Positions 11,954 to 26,375 of a stretch of DNA of 32,513 nt are shown one piece after another. The translations under genes and the position numbers were made by a program. The stretch spans positions 1-32,513 of the forward strand of contig CAYXST010000004.1 in the NCBI GenBank assembly GCA_964467815.1, in the 5' to 3' direction. The notes beneath the pieces are model-generated. The model was given only the letters and a program-made list of their open reading frames with translations. It was not told the origin of the DNA and made no database searches. Position 1 is the stretch's first letter. Every line of letters begins with the position of its first letter. The stretch is from an uncultured Candidatus Saccharibacteria bacterium. GTDB taxonomy: Bacteria > Patescibacteriota > Minisyncoccia > Portnoybacterales > UBA2143.

Positions 11954-12142
11954 GGGTAAGGCATACCCAAAATGTCAGGCCAGAACCAGTAATTGTCTAA
12001 CTTGATTTAAAACTAATCCTGGAACAGGCAGGGCTTTGCTCCAGTCAAAGGTTCGAAAGCTGTCTCGCCAAGCGAGCCACAAAAAATCACCAGTATTCGC
12101 TGGTAATTTTGTGTATATCCGAAGTGGACAGTAAAACTTTTT
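11954..12142. ncRNA. candidate structured RNA / repeat element, copy B
   Basis: The core 12008-12079 matches copy A at 69/72 positions. Compensatory changes occur in flanking helices (GGGTA/TACCC versus GGGCA/TGCCC; TCAGG/CTTGA versus TCAAA/TTTGA). A hairpin of different sequence occupies the equivalent place (12078-12113). Confidence 0.45.
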
Positions 12143-12250
12143 GGTATTAGAATAAAGTTGCAGCGTTGATTTATTGCGGATTTTAAATCGGATGGTTGTC
12201 TGTATTTTTTTATAGCTTGGTCTGTTTACAGAAAGAAGCGATCTAGCAAT

Positions 12251-12940
12251 ATGGACAAAAAGGAATTTTATCTTAAGAAAATAGGCCAAAGAGGAAAAAT
12301 TGCCATTTGGCTGGTTGATGGCAGTAAGATTAGATGTGATTTAGATAAAGAATTTACTAATTTTGGGCAGCATTTCAGATTTTCCTTTATACCTAAATAT
12401 GAATTTTGGCTGGATAAAGAAGCAATGCCCAATGAACGCCGTTTTTTTATAGACCATCTTCTTGTTGAATGGCAGAGCATGAGGGAGGGAAGTTCATATA
12501 TTGAAGCGTTTGATGCGGCTGGCGAGAAAGAGCGTTCCGAAAGGTTTAAGGCGGGCGATTTGAAAAAGGTCTGCGGCAAAGATAATCGCCCTGATATTAA
12601 AAAGATGCGTTGTCGGTTGCTGTACAAAACAGACGGCGGGATTTTGATTTGGCTGGTTTATGGCCGTTTGGTCAGAAGCGCTTTTAATATTGATTTCACC
12701 CAGGGCGGCCATGACTTAGTTTATGATTTTGTGCCCAGGAATAACGTTTGGCTGGATAACGATGTTTTGATTAAAGAACGGCCCTATATTATGTTGCACG
12801 AACTTTACGAACGCTCTTTGATGAAACGAGGGTTTGATTATCCGAAGGCGCACAGAAGGGCAAGCAAAATAGAATGGCAGGCGAGGCATGACAAAAGAAA
12901 GCTCAAAGAAAGTTTGGCGCTTTTAGGCATATATGATTAG
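12251..12940 (+). CDS. hypothetical protein made of two tandem copies of an ~85-aa unknown domain
   Basis: Internal repeat: IWLVDGSKIR..FTNFGQ..FIPKYEFWLD..ERRFFIDHLLVEW aligns with IWLVYGRLVR..FTQGGH..FVPRNNVWLD..ERPYIMLHELYER. Confidence 0.5.
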   Translation: MDKKEFYLKKIGQRGKIAIWLVDGSKIRCDLDKEFTNFGQHFRFSFIPKYEFWLDKEAMPNERRFFIDHLLVEWQSMREGSSYIEAFDAAGEKERSERFKAGDLKKVCGKDNRPDIKKMRCRLLYKTDGGILIWLVYGRLVRSAFNIDFTQGGHDLVYDFVPRNNVWLDNDVLIKERPYIMLHELYERSLMKRGFDYPKAHRRASKIEWQARHDKRKLKESLALLGIYD

Positions 12941-16657: not shown

Positions 16658-18628
16658 ATGTCTCCATCATTATATTTTTGTTTAATAAGCTCTTTTCTGG
16701 CTTTATCAATGGCCGGCTTTTTGTCTTGGCGGATAAAAAGACAAACTGTTACTGATGAAAAAGCCGACCGAATTAGCCAAATCATCAAAAAAGGAGCCAT
16801 GGCTTTTTTGAATCGGGAGTATCAAATTCTTTTTGTTTTCGTTTTGGTCGTCGCCGTTCTCCTCTATTATTTTCTTAATTCTAAAACAGCCATCGCTTTT
16901 GTCAGCGGTGCTTTTCTAAGCGGTTTGGCCGGTCAGATCGGTCTGCGAATAGCCACCTCGGCCAATGTCCGGACGGCCGAAAAGCTTAATCGTGATTTAA
17001 AATCAGGTTTAAACGTTGCTTTTAACAGCGGCAGCGTGATGGCTTTAAGCGTAGTCGGCTTGGGTCTTTTAGGTATTACCGTTCTTTATTTAATTTTCAA
17101 AGAGCCGAGCATTATTTACGGTTTTGGCTTCGGCGCCTCTTCAGTAGCTTTGTTCGCTCGGGTCGGCGGCGGTATTTATACCAAAGCGGCCGATGTCGGA
17201 GCTGATTTGGTTGGTAAGGTTGAAAAGGGGATTCCCGAAGACGACCCGCGCAATCCGGCGACTATTGCTGATAACGTCGGTGATAACGTTGGAGATGTTG
17301 CCGGTATGGGCGCGGACCTTTTTGAAAGTTATGTTGATAGCATCATTGCCGCTATGGTTATCGGAGCGGTGGTGGCCGTCGGCGAACAGGGGATTTTTCT
17401 GCCGATGATTTTAGCGGCCGGCGGAATAATTGTCAGTTTAATCAGCAATTTTTTTGTTAAATTGGGTTCGGCTAAGGCGAAAGCCGGTTCTGGCCAAGGA
17501 ATTTTAAATCGCGGTATTTGGCTGGCCACGATTTTAATGTCTCTTAGCGGTTATGGCTTAATCAAATATCTTGGTTTCGGCATGCCTGTTTTTTATGCTT
17601 TCTTGGTCGGTTTGCTGGCCGGTTTAAGTATCGGTTTAGTGACTGAATATTTTACTTCGCATAAATATCGCTTTACCCAAAGAGTAGCCCAAGCGGCTCA
17701 GACCGGAGCGGGAACTAATATTATTGCCGGCTTTGCTCTTGGTTTAAGCAGTACGATTCTGCCAATTTTAATCATCAGCGCGGCTATTTTTTTGGCCTAT
17801 CAATGGAGCCAGTTATATGGCGTCGCGATTGCGGCCGTCGGCATGCTTTCTACTTTGGGAGTAACTTTAGCCGCTGACACTTTTGGGCCGGTAGCCGATA
17901 ATGCGGCCGGTATCGCTGAAATGGCCGGCCTCGGACAAAAGACCAGGGAGCGGGCCGAAGACTTAGACGCTGTCGGCAATACGACGGCAGCTATTGGCAA
18001 AGGATTTGCCATTGGGGCGGCCGCTTTGACCGCTTTGGCTTTAATGATAAGTTACGGCCAAGCCGTCAAACTGCCTTTTGTTGATTTATTCAATTACAAG
18101 GTCATCGTCGGTCTTTTCTTAGGCGGCTTAATGCCTTTTGTCTTTTCTTCCTTCGCTTTACAGGCAGTTGGCCGGGCAGCCATGGCTATGGTTGAAGAAG
18201 TCCGTCGTCAGTTTAAGAACATTCAGGGAATTATGACCGGGGAGGGCGAACCGGATTATACTAGATGTATTGATATCAGCACTAAGGCGGCCTTGCGGGA
18301 AATGATTTTGCCCAGTGTTTTAAGTATTTTGGCGCCGGTCTTGGTCGGTCTTTTGCTGGGCAAAATGGCTTTAGCCGGTTTATTGGCCGGTTCAATCGTT
18401 TCCGGATTTTTATTGGCCGTAACTATGGCTAATTCCGGCGGCGCTTGGGACAACGCCAAGAAATACATTGAAGCGGGCAATTTAGGCGGTAAGGGCTCGG
18501 AAACACACAAAGCGGCCGTGGTTGGCGACACGGTCGGCGACCCTTTTAAGGACACGGCCGGCCCCTCGTTGAATATCTTGTTGAAGTTAATGGCCATTGT
18601 TGCATTGATTATCGCGCCGTTGCTGTAG
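16658..18628 (+). CDS. hppA: membrane-bound proton/sodium-translocating pyrophosphatase
   Basis: [54 protein letters not shown] and [12 protein letters not shown]...[21 protein letters not shown]. Confidence 0.95.
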
Positions 18629-18644
18629 TAAAAGGCGTATCCTC

Positions 18645-18674
18645 TTGACAGCTTTCTGGTTATGGGTATATACT
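18645..18674 (+). promoter_or_regulatory. sigma70-type promoter (TTGACA-N18-TATACT)
   Basis: TTGACA at 18645-18650 and TATACT at 18669-18674, just after the hppA stop. Confidence 0.45.
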
Positions 18675-18730
18675 CATAATTGGCGGTGAGGGATAAATGG
18701 AAATTTATTTTCATTTAGACCGAGCAACCA

Positions 18731-18756
18731 ATTATATAGATATGTATCTATATAAT
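18731..18756. promoter_or_regulatory. perfect 12-bp inverted repeat (candidate operator)
   Basis: ATTATATAGATA-TG-TATCTATATAAT. Confidence 0.4.
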
Positions 18757-18814
18757 AGAGTATTACTTAATAACGGATGGCTGTTTTTGTTAAAAAGGTC
18801 GCGGTCATCTGACT

Positions 18815-18854
18815 CCTCATCTTTTTTGTCAATAAAAGAAAGATGAGGTATAAT
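18815..18854 (+). promoter_or_regulatory. promoter TTGTCA-N17-TATAAT embedded in a 10-bp inverted repeat
   Basis: -35 at 18826-18831 and -10 at 18849-18854. The arms CCTCATCTTT (18815-18824) and AAAGATGAGG (18839-18848) bracket the -35 element and spacer. Confidence 0.55.
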
Positions 18855-18872
18855 AAAAGAGAAGAAATTACT

Positions 18873-19199
18873 ATGCCTGCTTTCAACGGAACAGGTCCTC
18901 AAGGCCAAGGCTCACGGACTGGCCGCGGTTTAGGTTATTGCCGGCCCACCGGGCAGACGAATCAACCTGGTTATAGGCGCGGTTTAGGCCAAGGTTGGTT
19001 CGGCCGAAGATTGGGTCGTGGCTTTGGTTTTGGCCGCGGCTGGGGATACCCATATGGAGGTTATCCGGATAGACCCGATTATCCCTATGAACCAACGGCC
19101 AAAGAAGAAAAAGAAATACTGGCTGAAGAGCTTCAGGGGTTAAAAGAAGAAACAAAGAGAACGGAAACCCGTCTTGAGGAACTGAAAAATAAAAAATAA
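18873..19199 (+). CDS. DUF5320-family protein (Gly/Arg-rich, C-terminal coiled coil)
   Basis: The N-terminus MPAFNGTGPQGQGSRTGRGLGYC is the family hallmark. ATG 18873 is chosen because the promoter -10 lies inside the longer ORF. Confidence 0.65.
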   Translation: MPAFNGTGPQGQGSRTGRGLGYCRPTGQTNQPGYRRGLGQGWFGRRLGRGFGFGRGWGYPYGGYPDRPDYPYEPTAKEEKEILAEELQGLKEETKRTETRLEELKNKK

Positions 19200-19225
19200 A
19201 ATAATAGGGATAAGGAGAAAAAAAC

Positions 19226-19453
19226 ATGCCATTTAGAGATGGAACCGGTCTTTCTGGCCAGGCGCCAGGCGCCGGCCAAGGCTTCAGGCAGGGTCAGGGC
19301 CGCGGTCGTCAAACAGAAGGTTTCGGTTTAGGACCGGACGGAGAATGTCTCTGTCCAAAATGCGGAACAAAAGTCCCTCATCAGAGAGGAGTGCCTTGTT
19401 ACGAACAAAAATGCCCTAAATGCGGCAGTTTGATGACTCGGACTGGGCAATAA
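19226..19453 (+). CDS. DUF5320-like N-terminus fused to a 4-Cys zinc ribbon
   Basis: MPFRDGTGLSGQ..., then CLCPKCGTKVPHQRGVPCYEQKCPKCGSLMTR. GGAGA SD lies upstream. Confidence 0.6.
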   Translation: MPFRDGTGLSGQAPGAGQGFRQGQGRGRQTEGFGLGPDGECLCPKCGTKVPHQRGVPCYEQKCPKCGSLMTRTGQ

Positions 19454-19465
19454 CTTTAAATTAAT

Positions 19466-19891
19466 ATGAAGATTTGTTTAAGCGCCAGCTTACCTAAGTT
19501 TGATTCGCCGATAGACCCGCGTTTTGGCCGGGCGCCTTATTTTTTAATTACTGACGAAAAAGGAGAAAAATTGGAAGTGATTAAGAATACCGGAGTCGAA
19601 GCAATGGGCGGAGCCGGAGTAACCGCGGCTCAATTAGTTGTTTCAGCCGGTACCCAATTGATCATTACCGGTAATTTAGGACCACGGGCCTTCCAGGTTC
19701 TTCAAAATTCGGGGATAAAAATAATTATTGGCGTTTCCGGAATTTCAGCCAAAGAGGCTTTGGAAAAATATCAAAAAGGAGAACTAAAAGAGATGGCTCG
19801 ACCAAGCGTGCCTGGCCATTTTGGAATAGGTCAAAGATTCGGCGGCAGTCGAGGCGGCTTTGGTGGCGGTCATCGTTCGAGCCATCGATAG
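19466..19891 (+). CDS. NifB/NifX-like (dinitrogenase FeMo-cofactor-binding fold) domain protein with Gly/Arg-rich tail
   Basis: IDPRFGRAPYFLITD...GGAGVTAAQLVVSAGTQLIITGNLGPRAFQVLQNSGIKI, with the tail GGSRGGFGGGHRSSHR. Confidence 0.7.
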   Translation: MKICLSASLPKFDSPIDPRFGRAPYFLITDEKGEKLEVIKNTGVEAMGGAGVTAAQLVVSAGTQLIITGNLGPRAFQVLQNSGIKIIIGVSGISAKEALEKYQKGELKEMARPSVPGHFGIGQRFGGSRGGFGGGHRSSHR

Positions 19892-19923
19892 ATATTACGA
19901 GAACGGTTCTCGGACTTATTTAT

Positions 19924-21162
19924 ATGACCGAAGTATTTAAAAAAGGCCAAAAGGCCACGATGATTTCAGCGTTGTTAACCATTCTTTTGGCCGTAATTAA
20001 GGGGATAGTCGGCTTGGTTTCAGGAAGCGTTGTTTTACTAGCCGATGCGGTTCATAGCGCGGCCGACTCTCTTTCCAGTTTTGCCGCTTGGTTTGGTTTA
20101 AAAATTTCTCAAAAAAAACCGACCGAGAAGTTTTCCTACGGTTTTTATAAAGCGGAGAATTTAACCGCACTTTTGATTTCCGGACTTATTCTTTTAGCCG
20201 GTTTTTTAATTGTTCAAGAAAGCCTTTCCAAGTTTTTTGTAGAATCAAAATTGAATATTCCTTTAGTGGCTATCGGAGCGGCTGTTTTGGACGCCATCGT
20301 TATGTTTTCAATTGGAACCTATGAAGTGAAAGTAGGCCGGAAGATAAACTCTCAAAGCTTGATGGCCGATGGCCGGGAATCGCGCCTTCATTTACTTTCT
20401 TCTTCTTTGGTTTTAATCGGTTTATTCTCCAGCTGGTTAAAAATTCCTTATTTAGAAGGAATTATGGGGATGGCCATTTCTCTTTTTATTTTTCAGGCCG
20501 GCTTAAGTTCTGTCAAAGATTCAATTTTTGCCTTGATGGATGTTTCTCCGGAAAAAGAAAAAGAAGAAAAAGTTAAGAAAATTTTAAATGGTATTTCCGG
20601 AATCAGAGGATTTGAAAACTTAAAATTAAGAAAATCAGGCCCATTTATTTTCGGAGAGGTTAAGATAAAAATCGGCAAAGCTATCAATGTTAAAAAAGCT
20701 TATGAAATCTCGGGAAATATCGAGAAAGAAATTAAGAAAGGGGTAAGGTCAATTGATTCATTTACGGTAATGGTTCTGCCTTATGAAGTCGAAAAACAAA
20801 AAATATGCATTCCTATCGGCAAAGACAAAGGAATCAACTCTTTAATGTCCAATCATTTTGGCCGGGCTAATAAATTTGTTTTTATCAATTTAGATAAGGG
20901 AGAAATTAAAGATTATTACATTAAAGAAAATCCTTATCAAGAAAGAGAAATCAGAGCCGGTTTGAATACGGCTTTATTCGTTATCAGGGAAAAGGTTGAT
21001 TCGGTCATTACCCAAGAAATGGGACCGATTTCTCTTCATACTTTAAGAGATAATATCGTTGATGTTTATTCAAATACAGACGGTCAGGTCAAGGAAATCG
21101 TCAAAAAATTTATTCAGAAGAAACTTAAACCGTTAAAAGAAGCGACTAAAGAAAAGATATGA
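19924..21162 (+). CDS. cation diffusion facilitator (CDF) transporter fused to a C-terminal NifX-like domain
   Basis: The CDF transmembrane core has SVVLLADAVHSAADSLSS and a cytoplasmic domain. The C-terminal ~110 aa (MSNHFGRANKFVFINL...VDSVITQEMGPISLHTLRDNIV) resemble the preceding NifX-like protein. Confidence 0.7.
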   Translation: MTEVFKKGQKATMISALLTILLAVIKGIVGLVSGSVVLLADAVHSAADSLSSFAAWFGLKISQKKPTEKFSYGFYKAENLTALLISGLILLAGFLIVQESLSKFFVESKLNIPLVAIGAAVLDAIVMFSIGTYEVKVGRKINSQSLMADGRESRLHLLSSSLVLIGLFSSWLKIPYLEGIMGMAISLFIFQAGLSSVKDSIFALMDVSPEKEKEEKVKKILNGISGIRGFENLKLRKSGPFIFGEVKIKIGKAINVKKAYEISGNIEKEIKKGVRSIDSFTVMVLPYEVEKQKICIPIGKDKGINSLMSNHFGRANKFVFINLDKGEIKDYYIKENPYQEREIRAGLNTALFVIREKVDSVITQEMGPISLHTLRDNIVDVYSNTDGQVKEIVKKFIQKKLKPLKEATKEKI

Positions 21163-21992
21163 TGACCATAGGCATCACCGGCGGCAAGGGAGGAACGGGC
21201 AAATCTACGGTGGCCATCCTTTTAGCCAATCAATATTTTCAAGAAGGCCAGAAGGTTATTTTGGTTGACTCTGATATAGAATGTCCTAACGACTATTTGC
21301 TTTTGGGCCAGGTTCTGGGAAAGCCGGTGGAAAAAACTTATACCCGTTTTCCTAAATTAGACCGGAGTAAATGCCGGAAATGCGGCGTTTGTGTCAGAAA
21401 TTGCCGGAGCAACGCTATTTTTCAGGCGCCGGGCCAATATCCGATATTCATTAAGGATTTATGCTCCGGTTGCGGGGCTTGCTGGTTAAGCTGTCCCGAG
21501 CAAGCTATCCAGCCGATTAAAGAAGAAACCGGCCGGATTTTTGTTAACCGCCTCAAGGAAAATTACTGGCTAATTACCGGCTTAGCCAAGGCTGGTTTGG
21601 AAGAAACCGGTCCCATTGTCACTCAAACGAAAAAATTTGCCTTAAAGTTCGCTCAAGAGAAAAAAGCCGATATTGTTTTGTTAGATACGGCCGCCGGGAC
21701 CCATTGCCCGGTTATCTCGGCTCTTCTAGACGTTGATTTGGCCAAGGCGGTTACTGAACCAACTCCTATGGGAGCAGTCGATTTGGGTTTAATTTTAGAT
21801 TTGTGCCAGAAAATTAAAGTGCCGGCGGAAGTGATTTTGAATCAAGCTGATTTGGGAGATAAAAAAAGAATTGAGGCGGTTGTTCAAAAATATCAAACCA
21901 AAATTATTCAGGAAATTCCTTATTCCAAGAAAGTTGTTCAGGCCTATTCTCGGGGGAAATTATTAAATTTTAAATTCAAATGGGGAAAATAA
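21159..21992 (+). CDS. MinD/ParA-type P-loop ATPase with inserted 2x[4Fe-4S] ferredoxin domain
   Basis: GGKGGTGKST, CRKCGVCVRNC and CSGCGACWLSC. Overlaps the upstream gene by 4 nt. Confidence 0.75.
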   Translation: MMTIGITGGKGGTGKSTVAILLANQYFQEGQKVILVDSDIECPNDYLLLGQVLGKPVEKTYTRFPKLDRSKCRKCGVCVRNCRSNAIFQAPGQYPIFIKDLCSGCGACWLSCPEQAIQPIKEETGRIFVNRLKENYWLITGLAKAGLEETGPIVTQTKKFALKFAQEKKADIVLLDTAAGTHCPVISALLDVDLAKAVTEPTPMGAVDLGLILDLCQKIKVPAEVILNQADLGDKKRIEAVVQKYQTKIIQEIPYSKKVVQAYSRGKLLNFKFKWGK

Positions 21993-22819
21993 GTAGTTCA
22001 ACAGGACTCACTATAAAAATTATTATTTTTGGGTTAATTTTATCTGTCTTCGGATTTGTCTTTTTTTTGAGTCCGGCCTTGGCGGTTGAAGAAGATTGTT
22101 ATCACTGCCAGAGCATTAGTCCGAATTTTTTACAGGAATTGCCCGATGATTTTACTTTAATTAAAATTGTTTCTTTAGCCGCCGTTGATGCGGTTAATCC
22201 CTGCACCTTGGCTGTTCTCGGTTTAATGCTGGTAACTATTTTAACTTATAACCCAGCCAAGAAAAGAAATGTCATTTTGGCCGGTCTAGCCTTTGTCTTT
22301 TCTGTTTTTGTGATGTATTTCTTTTACGGTTTGATTATTGTCGGTTCTTTCCAGCTGTTAAACGCTTTAAAGGTAATCCAGTTTTGGCTTTATAAAATTG
22401 TCGCTTTGGGCGCCATCGTTTTGGGCTTTTTGAAAATCAGGGACTTTTTTCGGGCTAAAGCGGTCTGTCGGGTTAATCCCGGAGTTGAGCGAATTCTTTT
22501 AAAAATAACCAGCCCAAAAGGAGCTTTCCTGGCTGGTGCTTTAGTAACTATATTTTTACTGCCTTGTACCATCGGCCCCTATATTATCTGCGGCGGAATC
22601 TTGTGCCAGCTGGGCATATTAAAATCCCTGCCTTGGCTGTTGCTTTACAATTTGATATTCGTTTTACCGATGCTGGCCGTTGTTTTCATTGTTTATTTTG
22701 GCTTAAGAAAAATTGAAGATATCCATAGCTGGCAGGCCAGAAATATTAAGTATCTTCATCTAGTATCCGGCATAATTATCCTGCTTTTGGGCCTGGCAAT
22801 GGTCTCTGGACTGCTTTAG
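21980..22819 (+). CDS. CcdA/DsbD-family thiol-disulfide transfer membrane protein
   Basis: Multi-pass membrane protein with conserved transmembrane cysteines (VNPCTLAV and LLPCTIGP). An extracytoplasmic CYHC motif is also present. Confidence 0.6.
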   Translation: MGKISSSTGLTIKIIIFGLILSVFGFVFFLSPALAVEEDCYHCQSISPNFLQELPDDFTLIKIVSLAAVDAVNPCTLAVLGLMLVTILTYNPAKKRNVILAGLAFVFSVFVMYFFYGLIIVGSFQLLNALKVIQFWLYKIVALGAIVLGFLKIRDFFRAKAVCRVNPGVERILLKITSPKGAFLAGALVTIFLLPCTIGPYIICGGILCQLGILKSLPWLLLYNLIFVLPMLAVVFIVYFGLRKIEDIHSWQARNIKYLHLVSGIIILLLGLAMVSGLL

Positions 22820-22932
22820 TTTTTTTAAAAAAGATTGAATTTTATGCAACTTTATATTAGAAAAACTTCTTTGATTAATCCAAATAGGTTTACGAATGGT
22901 TTAGTCGGAATGCGTTTAGAATTATCAAATTT

Positions 22933-23511
22933 TTGTATAATGATTTAAAAAAAGATGATTTGTTTTTACATAAGAAGTATCAAAGGCAATTAGAAGCGAG
23001 GGAAATTTATAAAGAGTCTCTGCGGGGGTCGAAGAAATATAGAGAAGTAGAAAAAAGATATAAATTACCAATGCAGAAACTATTACAAAAGCTATTCATT
23101 GAAGATAGATTCACTGGAGAAGAAATTGCTAAAAAATTAGGGATTCATTCTTCCTCGGTTTATAGATGGCTAGAGAAAACAGGAGTGAAATTTCCTGAGA
23201 AAAAGATTAAGAAAATTATAGTTAAGGAGTGCCCGGTCTGTCATGGGCAATTTGAACAGCAGAAAGGGCGTTTTAAAAAATATTGTTCTGAATATTGCAG
23301 AATTCAGGCAAGACAGACTGGAAAACTTGTAAAGTGTATCGTTTGCGGGAAGAAAGTATATAGGCCAGGATGGTGGTTTAGAATCAATAACACGCCGATT
23401 TGCTCTAAGGGATGTTTAAGAGAATGGCGGCGTATGCGTGTAGGGAAGAATACAATTCATCGTTCTAAGGAAACGGTCCAATTTGTGTCTTTTAAAAGAG
23501 GAGTAATTTAA
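22933..23511 (+). CDS. hypothetical HTH + Cys-rich zinc-ribbon protein (start uncertain)
   Basis: HTH-like EEIAKKLGIHSSSVYRWLEK, then CPVCHG...YCSEYC...CIVCGK...CSKGC. The track start is TTG. An extended -10 (TGTATAAT, 22934-22941) suggests the true start may be the first in-frame ATG at 23071. Confidence 0.45.
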   Translation: MYNDLKKDDLFLHKKYQRQLEAREIYKESLRGSKKYREVEKRYKLPMQKLLQKLFIEDRFTGEEIAKKLGIHSSSVYRWLEKTGVKFPEKKIKKIIVKECPVCHGQFEQQKGRFKKYCSEYCRIQARQTGKLVKCIVCGKKVYRPGWWFRINNTPICSKGCLREWRRMRVGKNTIHRSKETVQFVSFKRGVI

Positions 23512-24101
23512 TGAACAAATTGTCAATTATTGATAAGAAACTTAGGGGAATAAGGGATGAAATTGTTGATTGCCGGAAATGTCCTCTTCACAAAAACAGA
23601 ACTTTGCCGGTTATCGGACAGGGAAGCCATCAGGCGGAAATTATGCTAGTTTCAGAGGCGCCAGGATATTGGGAAGATCAAAAAGGAGAGCCTTTTGTTG
23701 GAGCTGCAGGAGGAGTATTGAATGAACTTTTGGATTTCGTTGGAATTAAAAGAGAAGAAGTATATATTTGTAATATTCTTAAATGCCGGCCCCCTCAAAA
23801 CCGCAACCCGCAAAAAGATGAGATTGCTGCTTGCGTTCCTTACTTAGAAAAACAGATTAGAATTATTCGACCAAAGCTTATTGGTTCGCTAGGCAATTAC
23901 GCGACCGCTTATCTTTTGGAAAAATTCGGTTTATCTGATAAAATTCAAGGCATCAGCAAGATACACGGCCAGGTTTTTGAGGCCAGGGCTGATTTCGGGC
24001 CAATTAAAATTATTCCTTTATATCATCCAGCCGTAGCTGTTTACAATGAAAGGATGAAAGAAACTCTTAAAAATGATTTCCAAATCCTCAATGAAAGATA
24101 A
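23511..24101 (+). CDS. udg: uracil-DNA glycosylase, family 4
   Basis: CRKCPLHKNRT...VSEAPGYWEDQKGEPFVGAAGGVLNELL...CNILKCRPP...HPA. Confidence 0.85.
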   Translation: MNKLSIIDKKLRGIRDEIVDCRKCPLHKNRTLPVIGQGSHQAEIMLVSEAPGYWEDQKGEPFVGAAGGVLNELLDFVGIKREEVYICNILKCRPPQNRNPQKDEIAACVPYLEKQIRIIRPKLIGSLGNYATAYLLEKFGLSDKIQGISKIHGQVFEARADFGPIKIIPLYHPAVAVYNERMKETLKNDFQILNER

Positions 24102-24975
24102 ACAATTTAAATTAGTCATTTCTTCAGGCAAAGGGGGCGTCGGCAAATCAATGCTGGCTTCGGCTTTAGCGATGCTTTTTGCTAAAAAGGAAAAAATCGT
24201 CGCGGTTGACGCCGACGTTGACGCGCCTAATTTAGCTATTTGGCTTAACGAAGTTTCTGATGAAAATGTTCAATTTTCCCAGAAAATTTCCAATTCCTTT
24301 AAAGCGGTTATTGACGAAAATAAATGCAATGGCTGCGGCCAGTGTGTTGAGAAATGTCCTTTTGGGGCTATTAAAATTAAGAACGGCCGGGCTAAAATAA
24401 ATCCATTTCTTTGCGAAGGTTGCGGCGTTTGCCAGATTATCTGTCCTCAAAAGGCGGTTGATTTAAAACCGGTTGAGAATGGCCAAATCAAAGTAATTAA
24501 GACTAATTATGGTTTTCCCTTAGTGATCGGTCAGTTATTCCCCGGCGAAACGGGTTCTGGCAAAATAGTCACTGAGATAAAAAAACAGGCCGAAGAAATC
24601 AGTCAGGCCGAATTAATGCTTATTGACTCGGCGCCAGGAACCGGCTGTCCGGTGATTGCTTCTTTGCGGGATGCTCATTTAGCCGTTTTGATTACTGAAC
24701 CGACTCTCTCCGGTTTCTCTGATTTGAAAAGAATTTTAGAATTGGTCGAACATTTTCAAATTCCTTTTAAAATAGTCGTTAATAAATGGGATATCAACCG
24801 TCCGCTGACTAAAAAGATGGAAAAAGAATTCAAGGATAATTTTTTAGGTAAAATATCTTATGACCAAGGCATTTTTAAGGCCATCGCCAACCTAAAGCCA
24901 ATTTTGAAAACAAAACTTAAGGCCAAAAAAGAGATTAAGGAAATATTTAAACAATTATATGCCCAGACCGTTTAA
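24091..24975 (+). CDS. MinD/ParA-type P-loop ATPase with 2x[4Fe-4S] ferredoxin domain (paralog of 21159..21992)
   Basis: SGKGGVGKSM, CNGCGQCVEKC and CEGCGVCQIIC. ATG 24091 (MKDKQFKLVISSGKGG) is preferred over 24073. Confidence 0.75.
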   Translation: MKDKQFKLVISSGKGGVGKSMLASALAMLFAKKEKIVAVDADVDAPNLAIWLNEVSDENVQFSQKISNSFKAVIDENKCNGCGQCVEKCPFGAIKIKNGRAKINPFLCEGCGVCQIICPQKAVDLKPVENGQIKVIKTNYGFPLVIGQLFPGETGSGKIVTEIKKQAEEISQAELMLIDSAPGTGCPVIASLRDAHLAVLITEPTLSGFSDLKRILELVEHFQIPFKIVVNKWDINRPLTKKMEKEFKDNFLGKISYDQGIFKAIANLKPILKTKLKAKKEIKEIFKQLYAQTV

Positions 24976-25276
24976 AAAAAGAGCAATCGGCTTTGACCCT
25001 CGGGTGACATATTTTAAACCGCGGGCGGTGCCCCTGTCTATTTTAGAAGAAATTGACTTAGGCATGGACGAATTGGAAGCTTTGCGGCTTTGCGAACTAA
25101 AAAAATTAGAGCAGGCCGAAGCGGCCAAAAGAATGAAAATCTCTCAAAGCACTTTACAAAGGATTTTGAGTTCAGCCCATCAAAAAATTGCCGAGGCCTT
25201 AACCGAGGGAAAAGCGATTAGAATTAGTAAAAATAATGGGAAACAAAGATTTAGGAGCAAAGCTCCTAACTTTTAG
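24959..25276 (+). CDS. DUF134/UPF0251 family predicted DNA-binding protein
   Basis: MPRPFKKRAIGFDPRVTYFKP...DELEALRLCELKKLEQAEAAKRMKISQSTLQRIL matches the family hallmark. Confidence 0.75.
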   Translation: MPRPFKKRAIGFDPRVTYFKPRAVPLSILEEIDLGMDELEALRLCELKKLEQAEAAKRMKISQSTLQRILSSAHQKIAEALTEGKAIRISKNNGKQRFRSKAPNF

Positions 25277-25299
25277 GAGCTTTGCTCCTAAAATCTCCT
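25263..25299 (+). terminator. 17-bp perfect stem-loop at the end of the cluster (terminator-like, no clear T-run)
   Basis: AGGAGCAAAGCTCCTAA-CTT-TTAGGAGCTTTGCTCCT. Each arm is itself palindromic. Confidence 0.4.
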
Positions 25300-25316: not shown

Positions 25317-26375
25317 ATGGAAAATATAAGACCAAAAGTAGTGGTCGGTCTTTCCGGCGGTCTTGATTCGGCCGTTGCTTTGTTATTACTTAAAAAGCAA
25401 GGCTATCGGCCGCTCGGCCTGACTTTGAAATACAGCCGTTGGTCAAACGGAGAAAATATTTATTCTAATCAGCCAGCCATTCGTTTAGCCAAAAAAGTTT
25501 GTCAGCAATTAAAGGTGCCTCATAAAACCCTTGATTGCCGCCAGGAATTTAAGAAAAAAATAATCGGCTATTTTATCTCTCTTCTGAAAGACAAAAAAAC
25601 GCCTAATCCTTGCATAATCTGCAATCAACAATTGAAATTTGATAAGTTAATCAGTTTTGCCAAGAAAAAAAGAATTGACCTTATCGCTACCGGACATTAT
25701 GCCCGGATAAAAAAAAATAAAGGCGAGTATCAGCTTTTAAAAGGGAAAGACGAGCAGAAAGACCAGAGCTATTTTCTCTGCCTTTTAAACCAGAAGCGGT
25801 TAGCCAAGACGATTTTTCCTCTAGGAGACTTAACCAAGAAAGAAGTTTATCGGCTCGCCAAAAAAGAAGGCCTTGATTTTTTAACCAGGAAGAAACAAAG
25901 CCAAGATTTATGTTTTGTTGCTCAAGAATCAATGTCTCTTTTTTTGGAAAAAGAGATAGGCCGACAACCAGGCCAGATTCTTGATAAAGAAGGAAATATT
26001 TTGGGGCAGCATCAGGGACTCCATTTCTATACTATCGGCCAGCGCCGGAGGATTAAATTGGCCGGCGGCCCTTGGCGGGTCCTTGGCTTTAATCGGGGAA
26101 AAAATCAATTGATTGTCACTAATCAGGAAAACGATCCGGCTCTTTACCAAAGAGAGGTTTTTTTATCTGATGTCCATTTTATTTCTAAAAAAGCGCCGGT
26201 CAGGCCGATTAAGGTTAAAGCCAAAATCCGCTTTAATCAAGGACTGTCCCGGGCGGTTTTTTATCCGGATAAATCTAAATTGATTTTCAATAAAGCGCAG
26301 AAAGCCGTTAGCCCGGGCCAGTGGGCTGTTTTTTACGACGGCCAAGTTTGCCTCGGCGGCGGGATGATAGTATAA
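25317..26375 (+). CDS. mnmA: tRNA-specific 2-thiouridylase
   Basis: PP-loop GLSGGLDSAV, plus PNPCIICNQQLKF and ATGHYAR. Confidence 0.9.
   Translation: MENIRPKVVVGLSGGLDSAVALLLLKKQGYRPLGLTLKYSRWSNGENIYSNQPAIRLAKKVCQQLKVPHKTLDCRQEFKKKIIGYFISLLKDKKTPNPCIICNQQLKFDKLISFAKKKRIDLIATGHYARIKKNKGEYQLLKGKDEQKDQSYFLCLLNQKRLAKTIFPLGDLTKKEVYRLAKKEGLDFLTRKKQSQDLCFVAQESMSLFLEKEIGRQPGQILDKEGNILGQHQGLHFYTIGQRRRIKLAGGPWRVLGFNRGKNQLIVTNQENDPALYQREVFLSDVHFISKKAPVRPIKVKAKIRFNQGLSRAVFYPDKSKLIFNKAQKAVSPGQWAVFYDGQVCLGGGMIV

Follow-up and report, generated by a model that had tools for sequence, protein, structure and literature searches.

A conserved DUF5320-to-DUF134 operon in a Patescibacteria genome, its candidate operator and a possible role in iron-sulfur handling

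The DNA analysed here (the window) is a stretch of 32,513 nucleotides, contig CAYXST010000004.1, and forms part of the 576-kb, 98.9% complete genome of an uncultured Candidatus Saccharibacteria bacterium. On its plus strand, between hppA (16658-18628) and mnmA (25317-26375), lies a gene cluster that encodes DUF5320, NifX-like, CDF, MinD-ferredoxin and DUF134 proteins, and this cluster and its candidate regulator are the subject of this study. The nearest homologues of its DUF134 and CDF proteins belong to Patescibacteria according to their source records. The cluster consists of ten co-directional open reading frames (18843-25276) separated by -29 to +113 nt, and in several cases a start overlaps the stop of the gene before it. 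An earlier reading made from the letters alone (the sequence-only reading) had described a co-directional, packed or overlapping cluster of eight to ten genes, which agrees with this arrangement; two genes within the span, at 22933-23511 and 23511-24101, were missing from it. Families were assigned by Pfam and NCBIfam profile searches of the window proteins. The genes and their promoter elements are listed below.

18645-18674, plus strand: promoter P1, sigma-70-type, TTGACA-18-TATACT (11/12, the best promoter-like site of the region)
18660-18679, no strand: 20-bp palindrome TTATGGGTATATACTCATAA, candidate DUF134 operator, overlapping the -10 box
18843-19199, start corrected to 18873, plus strand: DUF5320 protein (PF17253, 79.8 bits vs a cut-off of 27, E 3.7e-22)
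19226-19453, plus strand: Gly/Arg-rich small protein, here called GRZn, zinc-ribbon-like at its C-terminus with 6 Cys and a His (comparison of invariant columns)
19466-19891, plus strand: NifX-like protein with a 37-residue cationic Gly-rich tail (Nitro_FeMo-Co, PF02579/IPR003731, 75 bits, E 6e-21)
19924-21162, plus strand: CDF transporter with a ZT_dimer and a C-terminal PF02579 domain (TIGR01297, 208 bits; PF02579, 49.6 bits)
21159-21992, plus strand: MinD-type ATPase 1 with a 2x[4Fe-4S] ferredoxin insert (CbiA/ParA P-loop and two 4Fe-4S motifs)
21980-22819, plus strand: membrane Cys protein with a signal/anchor helix, CYHC and about six transmembrane (TM) helices (no Pfam or NCBIfam family)
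22933-23511, plus strand: helix-turn-helix (HTH) and Cys-rich protein of 192 aa (HTH_23, E 6e-6; four CxxC pairs)
23511-24101, plus strand: family-4 uracil-DNA glycosylase, UDG4 (TIGR00758, 225 bits)
24073-24975, plus strand: MinD-type ATPase 2 with a 2x[4Fe-4S] ferredoxin insert (CbiA/ParA P-loop and two 4Fe-4S motifs)
24959-25276, plus strand: DUF134/UPF0251 HTH protein, the last gene of the operon (PF02001, 74 bits vs a cut-off of 27, E 1.5e-20)

The true start of DUF5320 is at 18873 rather than 18843, as judged by an ATGCC start that is conserved across related loci. The profile searches recovered the standalone NifX-like domain, the CDF transporter with a second such domain, the DUF134 protein and the two paralogous MinD/ParA ATPases (each with a P-loop and two Fer4 motifs, 33% identical to one another), all of which the sequence-only reading had named.

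The conservation of the cluster was analysed at two scales. Among 61 close-relative genomes, the window proteins were mapped onto flanks of up to 10 kb around 20 DUF134 copies, contig ends permitting. A cross-species scan, in which each species was represented by a single genome, yielded 588 DUF134 loci; the 80 retained for analysis came mostly from Patescibacteria, with several from DPANN archaea, one from Thermodesulfobacteriota and one from a spirochaete. All open reading frames of 79 loci were clustered without prior labels to obtain the family counts below, and in this as in every other count given here the kin are not independent.

MinD-ferredoxin ATPases: 43 of 79 DUF134 loci, 70 copies; 43 within 8 kb
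DUF5320: 42 of 79 loci; 38 within 8 kb
NifX-like: 32 of 79 loci; 29 within 8 kb
CDF: 31 of 79 loci; 26 within 8 kb
ABC ATPase: 27 of 79 loci; 24 within 8 kb
Membrane Cys protein family: 22 of 79 loci
Zinc-ribbon protein (GRZn): 17 of 79 loci
ABC-3 permease: 15 of 79 loci
UDG4: 15 of 79 loci

Nearly all members of these families were encoded on the DUF134 strand, and ZIP transporters (6 loci), thioredoxin-FTR fusions, AhpD-like proteins and metallo-β-lactamase-fold proteins were further recurrent neighbours. The families co-occur far beyond chance, as had been supposed when they were called recurrent neighbours, and the neighbourhood check proposed at that time ended in clear co-occurrence.

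DUF134 was present in 24 of the 61 close relatives, and its sequence is 70-85% identical across Patescibacteria. In the close relatives the locus was always situated between hppA and mnmA, and its content formed a series. The full version, seen in six loci, comprised DUF5320, in part followed by the zinc-ribbon protein, then the NifX-like protein, the CDF-NifX fusion, ATPase 1, the membrane protein, UDG4, ATPase 2 and DUF134; a shorter version held DUF5320, two NifX-like genes, one ATPase, the CDF gene and DUF134; and the minimal version consisted of DUF5320 and DUF134 only, with or without UDG4. Since the full, shorter and minimal loci all keep both DUF5320 and DUF134, these two genes are fixed brackets and the cargo between them is variable. 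The cluster is a real, conserved operon. Its location just downstream of sufCD and hppA had been taken as functional support, which did not hold: the locus lies between hppA and mnmA whatever its content, which is lineage synteny.

A common layout was found upstream of the first cluster gene in nearly every locus, namely TTGACA, a spacer of 9-10 nt and the palindrome TTATGGGTATATACTCATAA or a near variant, with 55 such sites in the related loci. The perfect form of the palindrome is TTATGAATATATATTCATAA, and the -10 box lies inside it. Only two sites with three or fewer mismatches were present in the host genome, at 18660-18679 and at G000:C52:1413-1432, and each of them precedes a DUF5320 gene; the site on contig C52 is the perfect palindrome, 82 nt 5' of a second DUF5320/NifX-like pair. 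On that contig the operator copy, a DUF5320 gene coding for 91 aa and a NifX-like gene extending to the contig end occupy positions 1413-2093. With at most one mismatch allowed, the palindrome was detected in 22 of the 24 DUF134-positive relatives vs 3 of the 37 DUF134-negative ones, and the latter three genomes are all 83-87% complete. Extra palindromes in the relatives preceded only NifX-like/MinD-ferredoxin ATPase, DUF5320 or DUF5320-NifX-CDF sets. In the DPANN loci a related palindrome either adjoins the start of DUF134 or occurs repeatedly in front of DUF5320, and in the Thermodesulfobacteriota locus TTGACA is followed by TTATGAGCATATGCTTAAAA.

The sequence-only reading had pointed to a different upstream inverted repeat, a 12-bp palindrome at 18731-18756. 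This candidate was rejected as the operator, as it lies within a leader insert of about 90 nt that the window shares with its closest relative (L049) alone; the conserved repeat is instead the one at 18660-18679, inside P1.

No DNA-binding protein other than DUF134 is constant at these loci. Residue 63, in its recognition helix, was occupied by Gln at 66 loci and by Arg at eight others, and base 8 of the half-site, T or C, covaried with it: all eight Arg63 loci had C at this position in at least one half-site (TTATGrGCAT), compared with none of the 66 Gln63 loci. On a maximum-likelihood tree of DUF134, Arg63 required about five changes, of which at least three were forced by well-supported branches, and the changes included those in Thermodesulfobacteriota and in one archaeal locus. 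Such a repeated co-change of residue and base is as predicted by a direct protein-DNA contact. DUF134 therefore very probably reads the 20-bp palindrome and in this way switches the operon, a proposal drawn from sequence comparison. Repression is the likelier mode of action, rather than activation, because the palindrome covers the -10 box. A comparison of DUF134 with the PDB revealed no solved relative; the N-terminal domain of DeoR was matched weakly, through its HTH (E 3e-4).

The two small proteins at the start of the operon, together with the NifX-like protein, share Gly-rich and cationic regions. DUF5320 consists of a conserved N-terminal motif, a disordered Gly/Arg/aromatic middle and a C-terminal coiled coil. 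The motif, MP..dGTGP.G.GP.TGRG.G.C, carries one invariant Cys (invariant columns in 42 and 13 sequences), and the middle region contains 30% G, 16% R+K+H, 19% F+W+Y and 11% P, with an isoelectric point (pI) of 10.3. In GRZn, whose family occurs in 17 loci, the invariant residues were C41, C43, C46, H52, C58, C63 and C66, and only the N-terminal ~19 residues are common to it and DUF5320 (hhalign 91%, E 1e-6). GRZn scored below the PF17253 cut-off, and 2 of 13 GRZn homologues matched this family. Of the two DUF5320-type proteins announced in the sequence-only reading, one with a zinc ribbon, the DUF5320 protein and the zinc ribbon thus stand, whereas GRZn itself did not score as DUF5320.

The nearest solved structures of the NifX-like protein were MTH1175 (1EO1, E 1.9e-19) and the orange protein of D. 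gigas (2WFB, E 3.1e-19, residues 2-113). Its 37-residue tail contains 30% G and 24% R+K+H at a pI of 11.8, and comparable tails were found in about 25 homologues of related loci. At 12069-12638 of an archaeal metagenome-assembled genome locus (L121), a NifX-like domain, a Gly/Arg/Met-rich tail and a C-terminal coiled coil like that of DUF5320 make up a single 189-aa chain; this fusion ties the NifX-like and DUF5320 families together.

A protein of the same domain family has been described in Pyrococcus. IssA, a member of IPR003731, serves as a store of Fe and S in the form of thioferrate; its disordered, cationic, Gly/aromatic-rich tail has been proposed to wrap the anionic thioferrate (PMC5524996). 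The tail composition is G 21%, cationic residues 10%, aromatic residues 20% and P 16%, with a pI of 10.7, and an uncharacterised mesophilic 'IssX' clade also carries Gly-rich, high-pI tails (PMC5524996). The NifX-like protein of the window resembles IssA (PF2025, Pyrococcus furiosus) in having an IPR003731/PF02579 domain, then a cationic disordered Gly/aromatic tail preceded by Pro; both belong to organisms with a minimal SufBC-type system, and MTH1175, the nearest solved relative of the NifX-like protein, was used to model IssA. The two differ in tail length (37 vs 70 residues), and in the window most of the IssA-tail-like sequence is found in a separate polypeptide, DUF5320, whose middle region comes near the IssA tail in composition and which has, in addition, a coiled coil and the conserved Cys motif at its N-terminus. 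The likeness is one of domain and tail composition, MTH1175 and the orange protein are equally near to the NifX-like protein, and thioferrate binding would be ascribed to it by analogy.

The invariant elements of MinD-ferredoxin ATPase 1 are GKGGxGKS, DxD..PN, two Cys4 motifs, D176-x6-C183-P-V and TEPT. Both ATPases keep the deviant Walker A with the signature lysine, switch I and an invariant Cys seven residues past the switch II Asp, the spacing of Asp125 and Cys132 in NifH. The AlphaFold2 (AF2) model of ATPase 2 (pLDDT 94.6) was closest to the PDB folds of MinD, FleN and FlhG, then to HypB, BchL, ApbC and Cfd1, and the ferredoxin insert was absent from all of the PDB structures matched by its fold.

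An arrangement of this kind is known from the ORP (orange protein) complex of Desulfovibrio. Its published components are MrpORP, NifX-fold proteins and a pair of MinD-like proteins that each carry two [4Fe-4S] motifs (PMC6345978, PMC3897727, PMC8359166). The role of this complex is still unsolved (PMC8359166). In D. vulgaris Hildenborough it comprises Orp3, Orp4, Orp5, Orp8 and Orp9 (MrpORP), and the regulator of the orp operons is OrpR. Both sets contain a pair of paralogous MinD-type ATPases, each bearing two [4Fe-4S] motifs, the window ATPases being likened to Orp3/Orp4 by described architecture, and one or more single-domain PF02579 proteins (the window protein against 2WFB, E 3.1e-19, is Orp8-related). 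Both occur in anaerobes that do not fix nitrogen, as a small dedicated regulon under a palindrome, and the function of both is unsolved. Unlike in Desulfovibrio, there is no MrpORP (Mrp/NBP35 plus Di-Nase) gene in the host genome: the window proteins gave only partial matches to the MrpORP model NF041136 (30-52 bits vs a cut-off of 450), and a genome-wide search with Mrp/NBP35 (PF10609) retrieved only the two cluster ATPases and one 255-aa ParA-like frame. The regulation differs as well, as orp operons have sigma-54 promoters and an Fe-S PAS regulator, OrpR, acting via GGGCGYRTTTTGCGCCC (PMC8359166), whereas the window has a sigma-70-like promoter, TTATGGGTATATACTCATAA and DUF134 as the candidate regulator. 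DUF5320, the Gly/Arg zinc-ribbon protein, the CDF-NifX fusion and the Cys-relay membrane protein are additions relative to ORP.

A role in cell division or positioning was first proposed for the ORP complex on account of the MinD-like Orp3/Orp4, and it could be extended to the window: the ATPase core folds like MinD, FleN and FlhG, and orpR mutants of Desulfovibrio have morphological defects (PMC8359166). The system is, however, accessory and patchy in close relatives, it sits among transporters and cofactor-binding domains, and its recurrent neighbours included no MinC/MinE-type partner, which makes a division role very improbable. The assembly or carriage of a Mo/W heterometallic cluster, of the orange-protein Mo-Cu type, or of a nitrogenase-type cofactor was likewise considered, given that orange protein binds a Mo-Cu-S cluster and the PF02579 fold binds FeMo-co precursors (PMC6345978). 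The MoCF_biosynth and molybdopterin oxidoreductase families had no match in the host genome, and the surroundings of the cluster showed no nitrogenase genes; this role was rejected on the genome-wide result, and we give it almost no credence.

The membrane protein at 21980-22819 had been called a CcdA/DsbD-like thiol-disulfide transporter. It matched no Pfam or NCBIfam family, and none of the DsbD/CcdA models (PF02683, PF13386) was matched even at E <= 1; among its 17 homologues, one matched DsbD_TM (7e-7), one DsbD_2 and four SfLAP (PF11139). Its invariant residues are C40, C43, D70, N73, C75 and C196. C75 (NPC) and C196 (LPC..GP) are intramembrane Cys residues beside Pro, while C40-x2-C43 faces outward. 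Long homologues have a signal peptide and an extracytoplasmic N-terminal Trx/Grx/ScsC-like domain with CPHC; in the window protein the thioredoxin fold is lost and CYHC alone is retained. Its AF2 model (pLDDT 75) had a best Foldseek E of 0.55 against the PDB, and a PDB profile search found counterparts only for the thioredoxin-like domain that the long homologues carry. The likeness to CcdA/DsbD-beta with ScsB/ScsC-type partners thus comprises about six TM helices, Cys beside Pro in an early and a later helix and, in the long homologues only, an outward CxxC within a Trx/Grx/ScsC-like domain. It differs from them in that the window protein has neither a DsbD score nor a thioredoxin fold, and some homologues score higher to SfLAP. 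The conserved Cys pattern and the thioredoxin-like domain of the homologues hence bear out part of the earlier assignment, while the family score is lacking, and the DsbD/CcdA likeness is a resemblance in logic, not family membership. A role of this protein in metal transport is possible.

These thiol features relate to another explanation, in which the cluster serves a redox or oxidative-stress response, with oxygen-sensitive Fe-S proteins switched on at low redox potential in an OrpR-like manner and the thiol-redox parts, namely the membrane Cys relay and the thioredoxin-FTR and AhpD-like genes of relatives, as its core. The orp operons are indeed switched by redox potential via OrpR (PMC8359166), and thiol-redox genes recur in DUF134 loci. 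They are nevertheless a minority there, in 5 to 22 of 79 loci, and the constant parts are DUF5320, the NifX-like protein, MinD-ferredoxin and CDF, so a redox response is an improbable main function.

The CDF protein scored 208 bits with TIGR01297 (cut-off 82) and also met PF01545 and PF16916 (ZT_dimer); its best equivalog models were MamB/MamM/FieF, and the nearest structure was FieF/YiiP. Site A consists of H44/D48 in TM2, which is invariant, and E152/H156 in TM5, where 19 of 31 homologues have H/D vs E/H here. The three-domain fusion of CDF, dimerisation and NifX-like domains was found in at least 120 protein clusters. A CDF protein with a C-terminal MTH1175-like domain and a candidate Fur box was described in Acidithiobacillus in 2007 (PMC1874648). 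Cdf1/CdfB of Acidithiobacillus ferrooxidans and the window protein appear alike in the fusion of Cation_efflux with a NifX/MTH1175-like C-terminal domain, a likeness of domain order known from sequence, and both are linked to iron regulation; they differ in phylum, in their neighbours (a ModA-like binding protein and an RND factor in Acidithiobacillus) and in the predicted control site, a Fur box there and a DUF134 operator here. In view of the ORP, IssA and Acidithiobacillus CDF literature, the earlier statement that no physiological role had been established for these families was too strong.

The transporters could alternatively belong to a general transition-metal (Zn/Fe/Mn) homeostasis or detoxification regulon, in which DUF134, perhaps with DUF5320, would sense free metal, the CDF protein would export the excess, and the NifX-like and Gly/Arg proteins would be metal buffers or chaperones only, with no Fe-S chemistry. 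Three kinds of transporter occur in DUF134 loci (CDF in 26-31, the ABC-3 importer in 15 and ZIP in 6), all CDF homologues have the Zn-type H...D in the TM2 half of site A, the N-terminal domains of the long membrane-protein homologues resemble ScsC-type copper-resistance proteins, and the host genome has no Fur or DtxR match. Yet such a regulon leaves the eight-Cys ferredoxin-insert ATPases, present in 43 of 79 loci, and the IssA-like tails unexplained, and DUF134 has no conserved metal ligand. We regard metal homeostasis as an unlikely alternative.

Whole-genome searches also gave no match to ferritin or cysteine desulfurase, and only weak GTPase-type matches to FeoB (29.8 and 20.5 bits). The Suf genes of the host genome comprised one SufB/D-type gene adjoining sufC, with one SufC. 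Five radical-SAM genes, whose products need clusters, were present. MnmA, encoded directly downstream of the operon (25317-26375), carries the motif C99-x2-C102 ... C199 of the Fe-S-dependent C-type, and CxxC...C-type MnmA is known to be Fe-S dependent (PMC7025502). Overlap of mnmA with the DUF134 stop in several relatives points to possible co-transcription with the cluster. The iron and sulfur gene inventory of the host genome is thus minimal.

A strong link to the loss of cysteine desulfurase was apparent in the close relatives, as 7 of the 8 full-cluster genomes among the 61 had no true cysteine desulfurase; setting the cluster against the loss of this enzyme gave 7/13 vs 1/48. In a class-wide sample of 201 genomes, each at least 90% complete, the enzyme was absent from 5 of 16 NifX-positive genomes vs 10 of 185 others (p 0.003; 0.05 with one genome per genus). 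The proposal that the cluster replaces cysteine desulfurase was demoted, since the remaining 11 of the 16 NifX-positive genomes keep SufS, and the link is a lead, not a result.

Not every gene within the span appears to belong to the system. The HTH/Cys-rich gene (22933-23511) had no homologue at this position in any of about 100 related loci, and for this reason it is read as a species-specific insertion that lies outside the system. One distant homologue of its product was seen in locus L071, near a DUF5320-DUF134 pair. UDG4 holds the same position in relatives, stays beside DUF134 in the minimal loci and has five Cys, including C21-x2-C24; it is possibly an Fe-S client, or else a syntenic bystander. 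The sequence-only reading had treated its eight to ten genes as one set: their common direction holds, but the HTH insertion and possibly UDG4 are bystanders. Three further features were found in the leader and at the end of the operon.

18776-18809, plus strand: leader hairpin (GATGGCTG ... CGGTCATC) with a AAAGGTCG box in the loop at 18794-18801 (locus comparison)
18826-18854, plus strand: second promoter-like site, TTGTCA-17-TATAAT, within a 9-bp inverted repeat (11/12)
25250-25292, no strand: nested perfect palindrome over the DUF134 stop codon, with a 20-pair stem

An AAGGYC box (AAAGGTCG in the window) occurred 2-70 nt downstream of the operator at 35 of 55 sites vs 1.3 in shuffles, counted up to a distance limit of 75 nt. 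It is often placed in the loop of a hairpin, the stems of which vary in sequence and keep their complementarity in several loci, and a search of the leader (18600-18900) against Rfam gave no match near any gathering score. The box occurs 30 times in the host genome vs 15 expected, with 13 intergenic occurrences; a genome-wide regulon was rejected, as the downstream genes (rpsM-like, a YchF-like GTPase and unknowns) share no theme. The insert of about 90 nt between operator and hairpin (18687-18773) and the second promoter-like site were seen only here and in L049, which makes the latter lineage-specific; in other relatives the hairpin directly follows the operator. The palindrome at 25250-25292 is made of two 19-nt hairpins that are mutually inverted copies, is unique in the window (0 expected by chance) and explains the C-terminal extension of this DUF134, which relatives do not have. 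Ahead of mnmA it may act as a terminator or attenuator; alternatively, it may be a small element that has been inserted.

Taking these results together, we favour, with moderate confidence, the reading that the operon is a Patescibacteria version of an ORP/IssA-type iron-sulfur (metal-sulfide) handling set, transcribed from P1 and repressed by DUF134. The comparisons show the gene content and its conservation, the operator with its narrow regulon and the covariation that ties DUF134 to it; we infer repression, the cargo (iron-sulfur, or iron plus sulfide), the signal and every biochemical step. The iron-sulfur cargo is suggested by the closeness of the NifX-like protein to MTH1175 and the orange protein, the IssA-like tails, the L121 fusion and the iron transporters MamB/MamM/FieF as best models of the CDF protein. 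It is also supported by the ABC-3, ZIP, thioredoxin-FTR and AhpD-like genes that related DUF134 loci add, and by the published CDF-MTH1175 fusion with its Fur box (PMC1874648). The genome context agrees with it as well, given the lack of any Fur, DtxR, ferritin or cysteine desulfurase match, the five radical-SAM genes and the Fe-S-dependent mnmA. The metal or metallocluster handling proposed in the sequence-only reading fits everything found, although two of its supports, the sufCD/hppA context and membership of CcdA, fail.

In the proposed mechanism, a single transcript would start from the promoter at 18645-18674, and a DUF134 dimer would bind the 20-bp palindrome over the -10 box and thereby repress the operon. 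The NifX-like protein, DUF5320 and the zinc-ribbon protein would form a cytoplasmic store or carrier that buffers anionic Fe-S material in an IssA-like manner. The CDF protein would move Fe(II) or Zn(II) across the membrane, and its own NifX-like domain could dock the same cargo, while the MinD-ferredoxin ATPases would act as an ATP-driven, Orp3/Orp4-like pair that receives, reduces or passes on clusters. The membrane Cys protein would deliver reducing equivalents to its outward-facing CxxC.

A bolder form of this mechanism treats the system as a split IssA of ultra-small anaerobes. DUF5320 and the tailed NifX-like protein would together build a thioferrate-like store from environmental Fe(II) and sulfide, the CDF-NifX protein would load or drain it, the two ferredoxin-MinD proteins would mobilise it, and the invariant Cys of DUF5320 would report its filling to DUF134, so that cysteine desulfurase would be dispensable here. 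As one joint claim this is distinctly doubtful.

Several points weigh against the proposed iron-sulfur handling role. The function of ORP, which serves as a model, is itself unsolved (PMC8359166). The sequence of the CDF protein, with its E/H pair in TM5, does not reveal its metal specificity. DUF134 lacks conserved Cys or His residues that could suggest how a signal reaches it, and the thiol-relay role of the membrane protein has neither a family score nor a fold match behind it. At class level the cysteine desulfurase link is weak, with SufS kept in most NifX-positive genomes. With NifX-like genes in no more than about 40% of the close relatives and 8% of the class, the system is accessory.

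The contributions of this study are the residue-base covariation, the two-site regulon, the full-to-minimal series at one chromosomal position, a membrane protein whose thioredoxin domain is truncated, the E/H site A of the CDF protein and the qualified link to cysteine desulfurase. The ORP complex and the MinD-ferredoxin/NifX-like/DUF134 sets are widespread in anaerobes and their role is unexplained. With a defined candidate operator, a narrow regulon and a predicted contact between residue 63 and position 8, the regulation of these sets becomes testable, and the split and fused IssA-type tails link the ORP and IssA literatures. For minimal cells such as this one, the locus suggests how iron and sulfide may be buffered and supplied for a few Fe-S enzymes.

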